Of a DNA stretch of 31,922 nt, positions 16,600-22,721 are shown in pieces; position 1 is the stretch's first letter, and every line of letters begins with the position of its first letter. The stretch lies in IMG/VR virus record IMGVR_UViG_2585427777_000013; one strand, given 5' to 3'. Made by a program: the position numbers and the translations under genes. A model generated the notes under the pieces. It saw only the letters and a program-made list of their open reading frames with translations. It searched no databases and had not been told where the DNA came from. This DNA is from a virus. Taxonomy: Duplodnaviria; Heunggongvirae; Uroviricota; Caudoviricetes.

Positions 16600-16782
16600 T
16601 CACGATTTCAGCGCAATGACCAGTTTTGCCAGCCCATACAGTATCGGAGACACAGCGATACCAACCGCCACCCACTTAATAGCAAAAGCCAGCGCTCTGC
16701 TGATGTCATCAGTTACTGGCGCTTTCAGTTCAAGGCCGTTTTTCATAGTCAACCTCAACAGAATTCGTTTATACTTTTCCAT
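16600..16782 (-). CDS. Hypothetical small membrane protein between endolysin and Rz
   Basis: ORF with C-terminal hydrophobic segment (WVAVGIAVSPILYGLAKLVIAL); start uncertain (GTG at 16815, ATG at 16782 or 16746). Confidence 0.3.
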   Translation of the reverse strand: MEKYKRILLRLTMKNGLELKAPVTDDISRALAFAIKWVAVGIAVSPILYGLAKLVIALKS

Positions 16783-16820
16783 GTTCTCCCTTGCCTTATC
16801 CAAGGTCAGAAACACAAAAC

Positions 16821-16938: not shown

Positions 16939-17472
16939 TTATCTGTCAATTCCCCAGCACGCCAGCGCACTCTCCTGGTCGCGACGGGATACCTGACCGT
17001 AACAGTTGTTTGAGCGAATACGGCAGTCTCTGCCACCGTCCTTAATCCACCAGCGAATCGCTTCGCATGCTCCCCTGCGATCACCTGCATTAATTCGTCT
17101 GTAAAACGTCGACGGGAAACACTTACCGGGACCAATGTTGTACGGACAGAATGACGCGATCCCCGCTTTCTGGGGTTCGGTCAGCGGCACTCTGATGTTT
17201 TTCTCCACCCACGCCAGCGCTTTATCACGCTCAATGGCGTTAACCTGGTCGCATTTTTCCTTCGACAACTTCATGCCCGGAACGACAGGTTTGCCATCCA
17301 CCATGATGGCACCACGGCAGATGGTCCAGATACCCGCACCATCACGGTATGCCGTGGTGTGGTTGCCTTCTTTTTCATCCAGAAACTGGTCGAGAATTTC
17401 AGGCGCAGACGCACCAGCGGCAATCAGCGCCAGAACGGCAGCCGACAGGCCGTATCTGATTTTTGCGTTCAT
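16939..17472 (-). CDS. R: SAR endolysin (T4-lysozyme-like GH24 muramidase with N-terminal signal-anchor-release domain)
   Basis: N-terminal weakly hydrophobic Gly/Ala-rich segment (YGLSAAVLALIAAGASA), then an E-x8-D-x5-T catalytic triad (EGNHTTAYRDGAGIWT); ATG start. Confidence 0.85.
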   Translation of the reverse strand: MNAKIRYGLSAAVLALIAAGASAPEILDQFLDEKEGNHTTAYRDGAGIWTICRGAIMVDGKPVVPGMKLSKEKCDQVNAIERDKALAWVEKNIRVPLTEPQKAGIASFCPYNIGPGKCFPSTFYRRINAGDRRGACEAIRWWIKDGGRDCRIRSNNCYGQVSRRDQESALACWGIDR

Positions 17473-17597
17473 GGATATTTATCAGGATTTATCGGTTCCG
17501 AATCCCTGGATATGTTAAGTCTTCAGCCCGCCAGTGGTGGGCACTGGCGTAAACTCAACAATGCGAGATGGCTGCCTCGCAAAGATAAGGAACAGAT

Positions 17598-17873
17598 ATG
17601 AGTGAAGAAAATAGCAAAGAGAATACAGCACTTTTTGACAGAATTTTTACTCTTGAGTTACAGGTCGGTTTTCTTCTCCCAAAGATAATCAAAGCAATGG
17701 ATGCACTAAGTAAAAATAACGCTGTGTCAGATTACCTGATCGCCGAAATGGAACATCTAATTAAAGAAATACCAAAGACAGTTGCTCGTGATGATAAAAG
17801 ATTCCTCAAGGCTGCTGAAGATGCTCTTTCAACAGTGAAGCGCAGCTTAGATGCGCCGCGCGATCAAGAATAG
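17598..17873 (+). CDS. Hypothetical protein (cargo ORF inside the lysis cassette, opposite strand)
   Basis: 91 aa ORF with AAGGAA ribosome-binding site 5 nt before the ATG; AT-rich; no recognised family. Confidence 0.5.
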   Translation: MSEENSKENTALFDRIFTLELQVGFLLPKIIKAMDALSKNNAVSDYLIAEMEHLIKEIPKTVARDDKRFLKAAEDALSTVKRSLDAPRDQE

Positions 17874-18336
17874 TTTCTTTCATTTCATCTGCTGCAAGCA
17901 CCTCATTTTTTGTTGGGGTGCTTTTTTTCAATTCAGCGATATAGCACTCCAGTTTTTCAATGCGTGATTCAATATCATCGTTTTCTGACCGCAATGCCGT
18001 CGGTGGCGTCTTCAGAGAACCAGTAATTATTCCCGGTAGTTTTCCTCTGTAGGTTATCAACACATCCTGCGCCTCTAAAATTATGGGGCGCTTTTCCGGC
18101 AACGGACCATCCCCTTCACATAACCCGGCAGCAACATCCATGAAAAACTGCTTCGCCTGCTTTTTCGCCTCAGCTTCGTAAAACTCCAGCGTGGCATCTT
18201 CAGTACGGTCAAGACTAATCGCCACATCTGGCAACAACAGTGACGGATACCCACCAATTTCCAGTGCCACAGTAACAGTAATCTTATTCGGGTAATTATT
18301 TATCCCTTTAACAACCAGTTCGTATTTTTTCTTCAT
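17806..18336 (-). CDS. Hypothetical protein (cargo ORF between holin and endolysin)
   Basis: 176 aa ORF, ATG preceded by GGGGAGAG and starting 5 nt after the holin stop; AT-rich; no recognised family. Confidence 0.55.
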   Translation of the reverse strand: MKKKYELVVKGINNYPNKITVTVALEIGGYPSLLLPDVAISLDRTEDATLEFYEAEAKKQAKQFFMDVAAGLCEGDGPLPEKRPIILEAQDVLITYRGKLPGIITGSLKTPPTALRSENDDIESRIEKLECYIAELKKSTPTKNEVLAADEMKETILDRAAHLSCASLLKEHLQQP

Positions 18337-18340
18337 CGCT

Positions 18341-18556
18341 TTACTCTCCCCGCGCCGCCTTACGACGGTCCTCTCTGATTTTGAAATACAGGTTAGTCAG
18401 ATATGTCAGCAGCCCAAACAGCAGACTTCCCAGTACGCCTATTGCCGCCCACTGAGACGGGGAAACCCTGTCCAGCAGCTGCAGGAACCAGTAGCCCGTC
18501 CCCACCGCTGACGTGGTGTATGACACACCTGTTGTGATTTTTTCCATCTGGTACAT
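18341..18556 (-). CDS. S: Holin, phage-21 S-type (pinholin-like) with dual-start motif
   Basis: 71 aa, ..[50 protein letters not shown] matches S21/EssD as remembered; begins MYQM, giving two in-frame Met starts. Confidence 0.85.
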
Positions 18557-18631: not shown

Positions 18632-18901
18632 TTACATCATCATTTCGCCGTCAGGCTGAGGCTCACTGCTACCATCAGGCTGAGACCCGACGCCATCTGA
18701 AACAGCACTGTCATCCGCAATGCCTTCCGGCTCCGGAACAGTCGGTGCGCCCAGCAGTTCATCCAGAATGGCATCCACTTCTGCATCAAGACGCGCCTCA
18801 AGGTTCTGCCGAAGTTGCTGTTTCAGTGCGCTTCTGACTTCTTCAGAGCGCAGGACTTCCTTCACTGCTTCAGCAGTGACCAGCGATTTTATTTCTGACA
18901 T
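18632..18901 (-). CDS. Hypothetical acidic protein
   Basis: ORF with ATG at 18901 (MSEIKSL..), acidic C-terminus; the track ORF begins upstream at a TTG. Confidence 0.35.
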   Translation of the reverse strand: MSEIKSLVTAEAVKEVLRSEEVRSALKQQLRQNLEARLDAEVDAILDELLGAPTVPEPEGIADDSAVSDGVGSQPDGSSEPQPDGEMMM

Positions 18902-18938
18902 GGTATTTTCTCGTTGAAAGGTGTTGTTAAGAAAGTTG

Positions 18939-19121
18939 CTACGGAATGAGAGGCTCTTCGGGTTTTGTTCCGGCTGACTGACTGGCACTGATTTTCTCAG
19001 CGGCCCTTTTGTCAATCTGCCTGCGCCAGAAATCTCTCACGACTCTGTACCCACCAGAAAGAAGATACAGCACACAAACTGCTGTACAGAAATACAACAT
19101 AATCAGCTGTAAAAATGTCAT
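18939..19121 (-). CDS. Hypothetical small protein with N-terminal hydrophobic segment
   Basis: 60 aa ORF with ATG start. Confidence 0.25.
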   Translation of the reverse strand: MTFLQLIMLYFCTAVCVLYLLSGGYRVVRDFWRRQIDKRAAEKISASQSAGTKPEEPLIP

Positions 19122-19269: not shown

Positions 19270-21213
19270 TTACGGGTTATTCACTTCCACTGTTATACTT
19301 TCAATCAGCACCGTATACGTCGCCGCTTTTGTGATATCCGTTACACGTAATTTGTCTGCCGCAAAAGAACCTACCGGAGACTGCGACAGCATGAACGGTG
19401 CACCATCCTGACCATCAATCACCGGCGTCACCTGAATGCTGTTATTACCGGCAAAACGGAAACCCAGCGTATGCCATTCGTTGTCAAATGCGCCGAATGA
19501 CCCCAGCTTCGTGTTCTGGTCAGCGTTACCCTTGTGGTACATCACGTTGAGGTCTGTGGCATCGCTCTGTACGTAAAACGACGCCAGCAGATTGTTACCG
19601 GCATTACCTTCCAGTGTGACACCCTGAGGCAATGAAGAAACCGGCCAGTACAGCGCCAGTGCGTACTGATTAGCCGTAAGCGCGCCATCGAGTTTAAAAC
19701 GACAACTGACAAGACCACCTTTACCCAGCAGGTCCGCACCATTACCAGCATCATGCTCAAGGTACCAGGGGGCTCTTCCTGTTTCCTTGGTCAGTTTCAT
19801 TGCCTTACCCCCGCTGGCTCCGGCATCATCCACGATTTGAGCCTTGCCACCTCCAGCAGCCCAACCCTGTGGTGTCAACCGTCCTTCAGACTCAGATGCC
19901 CGGTAAGCAAATAGCGTACTCATCGTCGTGGTGTCTGCGGGTGGCGTGGACGGTTTTGATGGTGTATCAGGTGACGGCTTCTCATCCGGTGGTGTCACGG
20001 TCTGCCCGCGCATCAATTCAGCCGTGCGCCCTGCATGGAGCATAATAGCTGAGGCCAGACGGTCTGAAATGACGCCCCTGCGTGCCCATGAGCTGAAATG
20101 GCTGTCACGCTGTGTCGAAACAAAACTGCCCTGGGTTCGGGATGCTGCACCGTAATACCCGACAGCCACAATATCCGGGTCTTCCGCCGGAGCATTCGTT
20201 GGCGTGCTCTGTCCATTCTCATCCGTCAGGAACGGTACAAAGAAAATATTCTGTGCTTCCCTGCCCTTGTAACCGCCATATACCGCCTCATATTTATCGG
20301 CGTTAAGATTCTTCCAGTAATACGTGGTGTCACCACAAATCCACGGCACCGAGCCAGCACTTCCGCCAACACACTGTGCAGAATATGCAGCCATATCAGC
20401 CCTGAACTGCTGCACCATAGTGGTAAACAGGCCGCTGTGCTGCTGACTGCCGTCCGCAAGATCATTTTCCCCCTGCATCCATACCACGGCCAGAAGCCTG
20501 TTTTTCGGGTTCTTCGACAGCGCCGCTTTTGTACGGAAGAGAAAATCCTGATACAGCGGTTTACCCACTCCCCAGCGGGCTGAATTTGCCGATGCGCCAG
20601 ACGTTTCGCTGAACGTGCCGTCATTCCCCACGGTTAAACCAGCCCCGCCACGGCAACAGGGCACCAGAAGAATCCCGGCATTCTGCGGGATATAAGGCAG
20701 AAGTTTTTTGGCAATATGCAGCCCCTGACCGACAGTCCCGTACTGGCCCTTACTCAGGTCTGCATGAGGATGGTTAAGTGCGCTCATGTCCTGAACATCA
20801 TGCAGACAGTGGTCTGCCGGAATAACGTCATTGTATGCACAGGTATCACCACCCGGCGTCACAGTGCTGCGACGGGCCAGCTGCTTAATACGGGAGTCAG
20901 GGCGATCATAGGTCTCCGGCAGAGGAAGCCCCTCACCATAGGCCATACCGTTCGACTGCCCGGCCAGGGGAATAACGTAGTAATACTCCGGTTCAGTGGT
21001 AGCCACTCCCGGAGAGCCACCAGCCCCTGTGTCGGGCACAACCACAGGCGTGGTCACATCACCCTCTGCGGCAATGGCCTGCATCAGTGTATAAGGCGTG
21101 ATAGCCACAGGACTGCCAAACGGCTGCCAGCCTTCCTTCAGTTTTTGTGTCAGTCGCTCCGCAAGGTCTGACGGCGACGCCGCCCTGACCACGTCATAGT
21201 GTTTAAATGCCAT
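19270..21213 (-). CDS. nanS: Prophage sialate O-acetylesterase (NanS-p-like; DUF1737 N-terminus + SGNH/SASA esterase + C-terminal lectin-like domain)
   Basis: Starts MAFKHYDVVRAASPSDLAERL (DUF1737-like); GQSN esterase block in YYYVIPLAGQSNGMAYGEG; strong GGAGG ribosome-binding site before the ATG at 21213; sits between the tRNA/stx locus and lysis genes as in Stx phages. Confidence 0.82.
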   Translation of the reverse strand: MAFKHYDVVRAASPSDLAERLTQKLKEGWQPFGSPVAITPYTLMQAIAAEGDVTTPVVVPDTGAGGSPGVATTEPEYYYVIPLAGQSNGMAYGEGLPLPETYDRPDSRIKQLARRSTVTPGGDTCAYNDVIPADHCLHDVQDMSALNHPHADLSKGQYGTVGQGLHIAKKLLPYIPQNAGILLVPCCRGGAGLTVGNDGTFSETSGASANSARWGVGKPLYQDFLFRTKAALSKNPKNRLLAVVWMQGENDLADGSQQHSGLFTTMVQQFRADMAAYSAQCVGGSAGSVPWICGDTTYYWKNLNADKYEAVYGGYKGREAQNIFFVPFLTDENGQSTPTNAPAEDPDIVAVGYYGAASRTQGSFVSTQRDSHFSSWARRGVISDRLASAIMLHAGRTAELMRGQTVTPPDEKPSPDTPSKPSTPPADTTTMSTLFAYRASESEGRLTPQGWAAGGGKAQIVDDAGASGGKAMKLTKETGRAPWYLEHDAGNGADLLGKGGLVSCRFKLDGALTANQYALALYWPVSSLPQGVTLEGNAGNNLLASFYVQSDATDLNVMYHKGNADQNTKLGSFGAFDNEWHTLGFRFAGNNSIQVTPVIDGQDGAPFMLSQSPVGSFAADKLRVTDITKAATYTVLIESITVEVNNP

Positions 21214-21300
21214 TATTCCTCCCCTTTCCGGGATTTTCCTCAACAGTTGCGGGCCACGGTCCGGCTACACGGAGAATCAAAAGAGGAGAACCGCAGCCCG

Positions 21301-21395: not shown

Positions 21396-21460
21396 CGCCC
21401 GCCACTCACTGCGGGCTTTTTTTTGCCCATAGAAAAGCCCCTCCGGAGAGGGGCTTTTTA
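21396..21460 (+). terminator. Two adjacent terminator-like hairpins; the second is bidirectional
   Basis: GCCCGC-cactcact-GCGGGC followed by TTTTTTTT; then AAAA-GCCCCTC-cgga-GAGGGGC-TTTTT. Confidence 0.5.
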
Positions 21461-21699
21461 CAGTGGTAGTGTAGACAATTTTGCATGGTGCCGGGTGCCT
21501 CCCGGTGAGTTCAGTATCAGCACCTGAACCCGCACAGAAAGGATAAGGGTCGGTGACAAAACACCAGTTGCTGATTGCCCCTCCGCACAGGGGGATTCAC
21601 CATGCCAGTTTCTTTTAACAAACTCCCCGCAAACCAGACAACAGTCAACCGCCTGAATTGTGAGGTATTTAAAAATTTCAACGGGTAACTGATACCCTG

Positions 21700-22471: not shown

Positions 22472-22548
22472 TGGCGCGTTGTACTGGATTCGAACCAGTG
22501 ACCGATTGCTTAGAAGGCAATTGCTCTGTCCGGCTGAGCTAACAACGC
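22472..22548 (-). tRNA. argO: tRNA-Arg, anticodon UCU
   Basis: Hand-folded cloverleaf: acceptor GCGUUGU/ACAACGC, D-arm GCUC..GAGC, anticodon stem AUUGC/GCAAU with loop CUUCUAA, T-arm ACUGG-UUCGAAU-CCAGU, encoded CCA. Confidence 0.85.
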
Positions 22549-22561
22549 AGGATACAGATAA

Positions 22562-22638
22562 TGAACCGCCTTCGGGGACCCGAACTCCGCGCAACCAGCT
22601 TCGAAGGCTGGCGCTCTTTCCTGATGAGCTAATGGCGG
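22562..22638 (-). tRNA. argN: tRNA-like gene, anticodon loop CUUCGAA (UCG, Arg); imperfect, possibly degenerate
   Basis: Perfect D-arm and anticodon arm (CCAGC-CUUCGAA-GCUGG), but an A-A mismatch in the acceptor stem, an A-C mismatch in the T-stem, T-loop UUCGGGU (G at position 58) and UCA instead of CCA at the 3' end. Confidence 0.45.
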
Positions 22639-22645
22639 TATGTGA

Positions 22646-22721
22646 TGGTGGCCCTTGCTGGATTTGAACCAGCGACCTGGCGATTATGAGTCGCTCGCTC
22701 TCACCACTGAGCTAAAGGGCC
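22646..22721 (-). tRNA. ileZ: tRNA with anticodon CAU, most like tRNA-Ile2 (lysidine, reads AUA); Met not excluded
   Basis: Hand-folded cloverleaf closely resembling E. coli ileX: acceptor GGCCCUU/AAGGGCC, anticodon loop CUCAUAA, T-arm GCUGG-UUCAAAU-CCAGC, encoded CCA. Confidence 0.8.

Follow-up and report, generated by a model that had tools for sequence, protein, structure and literature searches.

What are two small open reading frames (ORFs) doing between the holin and the endolysin of a temperate phage? The question is raised by a 31,922-nucleotide (nt) stretch of tailed-phage DNA (Caudoviricetes; IMG/VR record IMGVR_UViG_2585427777_000013), hereafter the window. Inside its lysis cassette, at 17598-18336, an ORF of 176 amino acids (aa) follows the holin gene, and a 91-aa ORF on the opposite strand, here called gene A, converges on it. 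The two ORFs are largely ordinary and already annotated, yet they are the visible tip of an undescribed cassette family. Our answer, given with moderate confidence, is that the interval holds one copy of an accessory cassette, widespread and hypervariable, in which two genes converge and which is found in Enterobacterales temperate phages. Gene A would be a prophage-expressed moron, and the 176-aa gene, in which a DUF1327 domain is joined to a small 'B' module, would make a late accessory protein, neither of them being lysis machinery. The combination that carries this answer, a shared structured leader and a two-ended convergent cassette, appears to be undescribed in the open-access literature, Rfam, Pfam, PHROGs, NCBIfam and PADLOC. 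The interval and its borders are built as follows.

16939..17472, minus strand: endolysin R, 177 aa, with a hydrophobic N-terminus of the signal-arrest-release (SAR) type (PF00959, phrog_7)
17476..17597, plus strand: leader of gene A, conserved across genera and abutting the endolysin ATG
17581-17588 and 17681-17688, plus strand: direct repeats AAAGATAA, which bracket a 100-nt deletion in many E. coli copies
17598..17873, plus strand: gene A, 91 aa, a small acidic soluble protein with a predicted three-helix bundle
17806..17873, both strands: convergent 3′ overlap of gene A and the 176-aa ORF, 68 nt
17896..17930, plus strand: intrinsic terminator of gene A from a terminator scan, AAGCACC...GGTGCTT plus a T run (stem-loop 17896-17923)
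17806..17985, minus strand: B module, residues about 118-176 plus the stop codon, homologous to free-standing 51-59-aa ORFs
18001..18336, minus strand: DUF1327 domain, residues 1-112 (PF07041)
17806..18336, minus (late) strand: 176-aa ORF, the YdfR/DUF1327 domain fused in frame to the B module
18341..18556, minus strand: holin S, phage-21-type (class II), 71 aa (PF04971, E = 9e-33; phrog_9876/phrog_20)

The two genes of the interval

The lysis genes lie on the minus strand, with Rz/Rz1 coming after endolysin R, and holin S may start at Met1 or at Met4. An initial annotation of the locus had the 176-aa ORF beginning 5 nt after the holin stop; the two genes do adjoin, but the spacing is 4 nt (AGCG) from the holin TAA to the ATG. 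The strong ribosome-binding site described for this ORF is present upstream of the ATG as GGGGAGAG, and the good one described for the opposite-strand 91-aa ORF is TAAGGA, 6 nt before its ATG. The 68-nt overlap of the 3′ ends was likewise found where it had been placed. So was the richness in AT, the guanine-plus-cytosine (GC) content being 0.425 for the interval and 0.395 for gene A, as against 0.514 for the whole window, 0.542 for the holin and 0.547 for the endolysin. The window holds no second copy of the cassette.

Are the two proteins unfamiliar, and is the insertion a private cargo, as had been supposed? Neither view survived. Residues 1-112 of the 176-aa protein match Pfam DUF1327, the 'YdfR family' (PF07041, E = 1.5e-44, 150.6 bits against a cut-off of 25), phrog_2091 matches it over its full length, and its residues 1-74 are 47% identical to K-12 YdfR; the 91-aa protein is a member of phrog_18136 (E = 5e-53). 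DUF1327/YdfR is a named, uncharacterised family common to most E. coli genomes and standard at this place in K-12 Qin and in Shiga toxin (Stx) phages. DNA for the domain is present in 3,079 of 5,426 complete E. coli genomes, with up to 8 copies per genome. The family as a whole is a narrow one: among 1.84 billion representatives it makes up 59 clusters at 50% identity. The order S-DUF1327-R recurs in K-12 Qin (essQ-ydfR-rrrQ), PhiR5_1, Stx2-86 and E. albertii, and PGAP labels the homologous E. coli stretch 'YdfR family protein | hypothetical protein | class II holin | lysozyme'. What does stand is that the lysis cassette carries extra DNA: in K-12 DLP12, where essD and rrrD are adjacent, the same holin type is followed directly by lysozyme. 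Since that holin-lysozyme pair has no DUF1327 gene, the gene is an accessory to the lysis cassette and not a component of it.

In position, with a class II (phage-21-type) holin on one side and a lambdoid prophage's lysozyme on the other, the 176-aa gene is a typical member of its family. In size it is not, as single-domain members have about 100-118 aa and residues 113-176 of the window protein are a linker and a separate small ORF. The protein is a fused variant within the DUF1327 family, with no departure from it. The AlphaFold2 model (mean predicted local distance difference test score, pLDDT, 63.6) has an N-domain of three strands plus a helix (residues 1-73; strands 5-14, 18-27 and 38-43, helix 50-73, pLDDT about 68-81), a conserved middle segment modelled at low confidence, and C-terminal helices; fold searches with the 176-aa protein returned nothing significant.

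Could this protein, perhaps together with the 91-aa protein, tune pinholin triggering or SAR-endolysin release and so set the timing of lysis? The gene is flanked by S and R and begins 4 nt past the holin stop, and would therefore be co-expressed with the holin; in thousands of genomes a strong link ties DUF1327 to phage-21-type holins. Furthermore, ydfR is among the genes that matter for envelope integrity according to a genetic screen cited in PMC13232886. However, the 176-aa protein has neither a hydrophobic segment nor a signal peptide, and hence no membrane seat with the holin: its Kyte-Doolittle maximum over 19 residues is 1.18 (holin, 1.70), with no transmembrane segment. No hydrophobic segment was found in the 91-aa protein either (maximum 1.30 over 19 residues), and the traits of lysis proteins looked for, a transmembrane segment, signal-anchor or lipobox, are missing from both. 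DLP12 does without DUF1327, the B module and gene A have homologues amid tail and terminase genes, well away from lysis genes, and overproduction of K-12 YdfR causes no growth defect. A role as lysis modulator, which the initial annotation had put forward, thus looks quite unlikely to us.

What might the domain do instead? Work on K-12 YdfR showed by two-hybrid and co-purification that the protein, and its residues 1-72 alone, bind the N-terminal catalytic half of RNase E, that RNA co-purifies with it, and that its overproduction is non-toxic and changes few transcripts (PMC13232886). By homology, the DUF1327 domain of the window probably targets RNase E or RNA as K-12 YdfR does.

Where does the remainder of the 176-aa protein come from? 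Salmonella, Enterobacter and Citrobacter prophages have a free-standing minus-strand ORF of 51-59 aa with a strong ribosome-binding site, which converges on an 85-aa gene and overlaps it by exactly 68 nt (loci L003-L009), as in the window. These ORFs align without gaps to residues about 123-176 of the 176-aa protein (the Citrobacter ORF is MTLEQRVEILERSVSGLKKSVPGKDETLALDELRETILDWASCLSCASPLQGHPQLL). Alignment of the junction showed that linker residues 113-119 stem from the former 5′ flank of the B ORF; this flank and the start of B are now read as codons 113-122 of the window DUF1327 gene, and the 176-aa protein is therefore a DUF1327-B fusion. Fusion by read-through into a downstream cassette would account for the spread in length of YdfR-family proteins, 103-305 aa. 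The E. albertii locus has no B module; its DUF1327 gene, of 113 aa, overlaps another convergent gene, of 90 aa. The B ORF and its ribosome-binding site are conserved, and in the 68-nt overlap neither frame is favoured (variable columns 12, 8 and 7).

And gene A? An identical copy of its protein is found on 158 contigs of the protein collection (P0121), and homologues with 58-72% identity occur in three other genera; these homologues, like the DUF1327 match of the 176-aa protein, put the ORFs beyond chance. The homologues lie between tail genes (Salmonella), beside HNH/terminase genes (Enterobacter kobei) or upstream of a holin (Citrobacter); they run against the flanking genes in every case and have no adjoining DUF1327 lysis cassette. 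Counted outside the overlap, differences between the Citrobacter and Enterobacter genes number 25 at third positions versus 6 and 3 at the others (23 synonymous and 6 non-synonymous codon changes), and another comparison gives 29 versus 13 and 8. This pattern argues that gene A is a real gene under purifying selection. AlphaFold2 predicts a three-helix bundle (helices 3-38, 42-60 and 67-85; pLDDT 77.5), and comparison of the model with the PDB gave nothing at E < 2.

Gene A also has most of what is expected of a moron. It is extra between otherwise adjacent genes, as seen from essD-rrrD of DLP12 and from ydfR-rrrQ of Qin, which has no opposite-strand gene, and it ends in its own factor-independent terminator. 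The terminator sits within the 176-aa coding region, where residues KKSTPTKNEV are its antisense, and compensatory changes preserve its stem in the copies of Enterobacter and Citrobacter (AAGCGTC/GGCGCTT and AAGCGTCTC/GGGACGCTT).

A structured leader and a hypervariable cassette

What precedes gene A? Alignment of the locus DNA showed that homology reaches about 150 nt upstream of the gene across genera. In the window this leader holds the following elements.

17483-17508, plus strand: palindrome CAGGATT/AATCCCTG
17511-17516, plus strand: −10-like hexamer TATGTT
17523-17528, plus strand: UCAGCC
17529-17549, plus strand: hairpin HP2
17563-17567 and 17576-17580, plus strand: hairpin HP3, arms GCGAG and CTCGC, with GGCUG in the loop at 17570-17574
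17587-17591, plus strand: ribosome-binding site AAGGA

A scan of IMG/VR with the central hairpin sequence gave at least 120 loci. A genome scan, covering one genome per species and using the downstream motif as query, found true leader copies in Pantoea, Erwinia, Pectobacterium, Xenorhabdus, Photorhabdus, Enterobacter, Citrobacter, Kluyvera, Phytobacter and others. The consensus begins, in most copies, with a minus-strand terminator followed by CTACTG...ATATCAGG; the palindrome is confined to enteric copies. A TA[AT][GT][GT]T hexamer is found in 95 of 96 unique copies, 7-8 nt ahead of an invariant (U)CAGCC, and a motif resembling a ribosome-binding site in 82 of the 96. The consensus loop of HP3 contains GGCUGA, after which come the ribosome-binding site and the ATG. 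UCAGCC and GGCUGA are complementary, both sides being invariant in the collected sets. The ATG of the first plus-strand ORF lies 46-53 nt past HP2 in about 100 of 127 loci.

On which strand, and in which form, is this element conserved? HP2 is 95.6% paired in a 48-sequence alignment, with double changes in 4 of its 8 pairs. One pair is UG in 27 sequences, UA in 12 and CG in 8, and is therefore consistent only with plus-strand RNA; moreover, in 75 of 79 copies the plus-strand leader has the more stable fold of the two strands. Wobble pairs and stability bias together indicate that the structured RNA belongs to the same strand as the small ORF and is a 5′ leader. Rfam gave no match at gathering score to the leader in the window or in eight related loci, and within 17300-18100 nothing at E <= 5 on the leader. 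Searches of the open-access literature with leader, flank and MTLEQRVE strings and with keywords found nothing relevant, and the leader-matching stretches of E. coli genomes are unannotated.

Several candidate identities for the leader were discarded. A minus-strand small RNA (sRNA) ending at the flanking terminator was rejected on account of the wobble pairs, the stability bias and the fixed distance from hairpin to ATG and ribosome-binding site. PasB, compared directly, is unrelated in sequence, and AgvB/AsxR and PasA/PasC lie at other positions.

Other features of the leader were noted along the way. Leaders of Xenorhabdus and Photorhabdus (within L131-L234, e.g. L134, L136 and L145) are without HP2 and keep TAAGGT, AUCAGCC and a GGCUGAUUACCUC hairpin; since HP2 is missing there, the minimal core is the 5′ UCAGCC and the hairpin by the ribosome-binding site. 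In the consensus, the 5′ arm of HP3 is a GGAGG-like sequence. The HP3 3′ arm and loop, GAUUACCUCU (e.g. L013, L016), resemble the 3′ end of 16S ribosomal RNA, GAUCACCUCCUUA; the window differs here (17568-17580, GAGAUGGCUGCCUCGC). An HP3 loop GGGAUGG resembles a CsrA site, the window copy having GAGAUGG. By eye, an upstream CTG-N9-CAG palindrome would need one more base to be a LexA box.

What does the leader drive? It precedes at least 26 unrelated families in the position of gene A, and stands beside at least 13 different neighbouring genes. The ORFs are mostly of 58-104 aa and nearly all without a Pfam match. PhiR5_1 and Stx2-86, for example, have the same promoter-hairpin part at the endolysin start and different downstream ORFs, of 86 aa and 104 aa. 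In most leader families a convergent partner starts with MTLEQRVEALE, behind the conserved flank GCCGAAAGGC-GGGAGA-CAGTT and a strong ribosome-binding site; these partners have a variable C-terminus and overlap the opposite gene by 4-68 nt. When the B flank alone is taken as the starting point, an opposite-strand leader lies within 1.1 kilobases (kb) in 48 of 52 unique loci. A conserved leader at one end and a conserved B flank at the other thus define a cassette of roughly 0.4-0.7 kb with a hypervariable interior.

Some partners have resemblances of their own. Those of 110-120 aa (L016, L019, L043 and L051; phrog_11851) have a strand-strand-strand-helix segment ending ...TLEGYxQRAKEHA..., which by eye resembles the DUF1327 motif ...TLEFYEAEAKKQA...; a relationship of these longer B ORFs to DUF1327 is not established by profile-profile comparison (probability 6.9%, E = 0.005). 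The partner C-termini of L018, L024 and L044 look like fragments of other phage proteins, for instance through a weak match to PF09327 (tail-tip, E = 0.0017), which suggests that the interior of the cassette is assembled from scraps.

Do A and B act on each other? The initial annotation had treated the ORFs as a pair, and this part is upheld in that other genera carry gene A together with a convergent ORF, which overlaps it by the 68 nt and is homologous to the C-terminal end of the 176-aa protein. One could then imagine a cognate pair, A expressed in the prophage and B late, which interact and co-evolve as, for example, immunity and effector, exclusion system, or toxin and antidote. It would fit that A and B are always swapped together between two conserved flanks, that the 68-nt overlap is kept in four genera, that the diversity is extreme (those 26 or more A families), and that a convergent arrangement would give reciprocal expression. 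However, co-variation of A and B is forced by their physical overlap, and is therefore no evidence of interaction. No purifying selection is seen on B, the partner ORF is of another kind in many leader copies, and the DUF1327 gene of E. albertii overlaps a different A gene without a B module. Nor is there any likeness to toxin-antitoxin or defence families: Pfam and NCBIfam assign neither window protein to a toxin, antitoxin or defence family, and PADLOC gave no credible match for either protein or for longer DUF1327 variants (best E = 0.0068, no system). These searches, with the harmless overproduction of K-12 YdfR (PMC13232886), give no evidence for the toxin/antitoxin or exclusion function proposed earlier, and we regard a cognate pair as rather unlikely.

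Expression, function and surroundings

How would an accessory cassette with two converging arms work? In the repressed prophage, gene A would be made from its own promoter. Its arm would consist of a −10-like element, some 75 nt of structured 5′ leader, a ribosome-binding site, gene A and the terminator embedded in B, so that transcription would stop inside the late-strand ORF. The 176-aa protein would be translated from the Q-dependent late messenger RNA (mRNA) directly after the holin. After induction, Q-modified transcription would run from the holin through DUF1327-B, antisense across A and its promoter, and into the endolysin gene. This head-on late transcription could silence A by collision and RNA duplex formation while the DUF1327-B protein is made. 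The DUF1327 domain may then bind the catalytic half of RNase E, and possibly RNA, and act on late RNA turnover, not on the envelope. Expression at lysis, first suggested for both ORFs, would be limited to the 176-aa gene, which is positioned for co-translation with the holin, because the 91-aa gene reads the opposite way and has a promoter-like element and a terminator to itself.

Is the leader more than a place to start? It could be a new class of cis-regulatory RNA that gates hypervariable small prophage proteins across Enterobacterales, with late partners, including DUF1327/YdfR, as the matching off-switch. The whole unit would then be a cassette system, exchanged by recombination, for genes of phage-host or phage-phage conflict. 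The complementarity of UCAGCC and GGCUGA might then serve as a switch or a protein-binding site, and DUF1327/YdfR partners might be RNase E adaptors which destroy leader-bearing mRNAs at the lytic turn. We hold this extended version to be unlikely. If the leader is a shared platform for expression or regulation, it offers one promoter and 5′ untranslated region as a handle on dozens of small prophage proteins, a candidate structured RNA for Rfam, and a concrete setting in which to place DUF1327/YdfR, known so far only to bind RNase E. The cassette is scattered through late operons of temperate phages from E. coli to Xenorhabdus.

What weighs against an accessory cassette of this kind? An MTLEQRVE-type B start is found within 1.3 kb in just 43 of 116 leader copies. 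The window leader has no GGA in its HP3 loop, and it lacks the left part, which in other copies includes the minus-strand terminator, because the endolysin ATG abuts the leader. Taken alone, the window copy folds better on the minus strand (z = -3.70 versus -1.62). A generic sigma-70 scan flagged no promoter in the leader, and the best −35 candidate is weak (TTGCTT-like, 3/6 matches, 15-nt spacer). RNase E binding is known solely for a 47%-identical homologue, whose overproduction altered few transcripts. The B module has no third-position bias (11, 9 and 13 differences; 6 synonymous versus 15 non-synonymous), and the fused tail may therefore be functionless read-through. Finally, gene A is rare in E. 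coli, with 45 of 5,426 genomes, and about a third of the copies are 5′-truncated: 29 of the 45 cover at least 80% and 16 do not, the sampled short matches covering query positions 79-208 only. A deletion between the AAAGATAA repeats (L030, L039, L087, L129) removes the ribosome-binding site and the first 33 codons of gene A, which suggests recurrent inactivation of gene A in E. coli prophages.

Would it then be simpler to see the 176-aa tail and the 91-aa gene as evolutionary debris, decaying recombination remnants at a mosaic joint with no present function? The tail, antisense to the terminator and 3′ end of A and free of codon-position bias, would agree with this, as would the truncation of the window leader on its left side and the frequent repeat deletions that inactivate A in other E. 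coli prophages. In the window, however, gene A is intact and identical to the protein on the 158 contigs (P0121), its hairpin, ribosome-binding site, start codon and terminator are all intact, and its substitution pattern across genera is that of a gene under purifying selection. Debris is, in our judgement, a very unlikely account, and we retain the accessory cassette as the preferred one.

The late region around the interval has other elements worth recording. On the minus strand, the STnc100 sRNA (RF02076, 145.6 bits) and three transfer RNA genes lie upstream of a 657-aa sialate-esterase-like gene, as listed here.

21425-21634, 22475-22721 and 19270-21243, minus strand: STnc100/transfer RNA/esterase region
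18632-19015 and 18939-19121, minus strand: DUF826 gene, overlapped by a 60-aa ORF; both lie between esterase gene and holin
16600-16815, minus strand: 71-aa ORF (phrog_1115), a second accessory gene in the lysis cassette, between endolysin and Rz

STnc100, transfer RNA genes and esterase form the late-region layout of Stx phages; no stx genes lie between STnc100 and the esterase. The interval from esterase to holin is the site of PasA/PasC and of AgvB/AsxR-type sRNAs in prophages of enteropathogenic and enterohaemorrhagic E. coli, and Rfam gave no gathering-score match there in the window. The phrog_1115 ORF has a strongly hydrophobic C-terminal segment (maximum hydropathy 2.04), and Stx2-86 has ant in this place.

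Comparison with known systems

The closest known relative of the 176-aa gene is YdfR (b1555) of K-12 Qin, which has a homologous N-terminal domain and the same place between an EssQ-type holin and a lysozyme. With 103 aa, YdfR directly overlaps rrrQ and faces no gene on the opposite strand; the window protein, in contrast, has a 64-residue extension taken from another ORF and is followed by a convergent gene. RapZ, the adaptor of GlmZ to RNase E's catalytic domain, offers a functional analogy only, as YdfR likewise binds only the N-terminal domain of Rne and co-purifies RNA (PMC13232886). The two differ in that they have no relationship of sequence or fold, and YdfR has no known RNA target and a small effect on the transcriptome when overproduced.

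How does the leader compare with the sRNAs of prophages? The anti-sRNAs AgvB/AsxR, the Pas sRNAs and STnc100 (at the pR′ moron site) are likewise conserved non-coding lambdoid elements, convergent and near lysis genes (PMC4104026; bioRxiv 10.64898/2026.05.13.724894). They differ in lying upstream of the holin or between tail genes and in having sequences unrelated to the leader, which is a 5′ untranslated region followed by an ORF and not a terminated sRNA.

Conserved flanks around variable cargo are also known from the P2/P4 defence hot spots of temperate phages and their satellites. Here too conserved flanks bracket diverse cargo, and exchange by recombination is therefore possible. The hot spots carry multi-kilobase defence systems at a fixed locus, whereas the cassette consists of two small convergent ORFs at many positions, with no PADLOC matches.

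Is gene A, then, a classical moron? Among the lambdoid morons are bor and lom. Morons were described as units of promoter, gene and terminator that have inserted between late genes (Juhala et al. 2000, as cited in PMC4104026). Gene A resembles them in being extra between conserved late genes, in its own terminator, in its lower GC content and in its strand, opposite to late transcription. Classical morons, however, have individual, unrelated control regions, whereas the cassette gives one structured leader to dozens of unrelated small ORFs and pairs gene A with a convergent late-strand ORF of conserved start.

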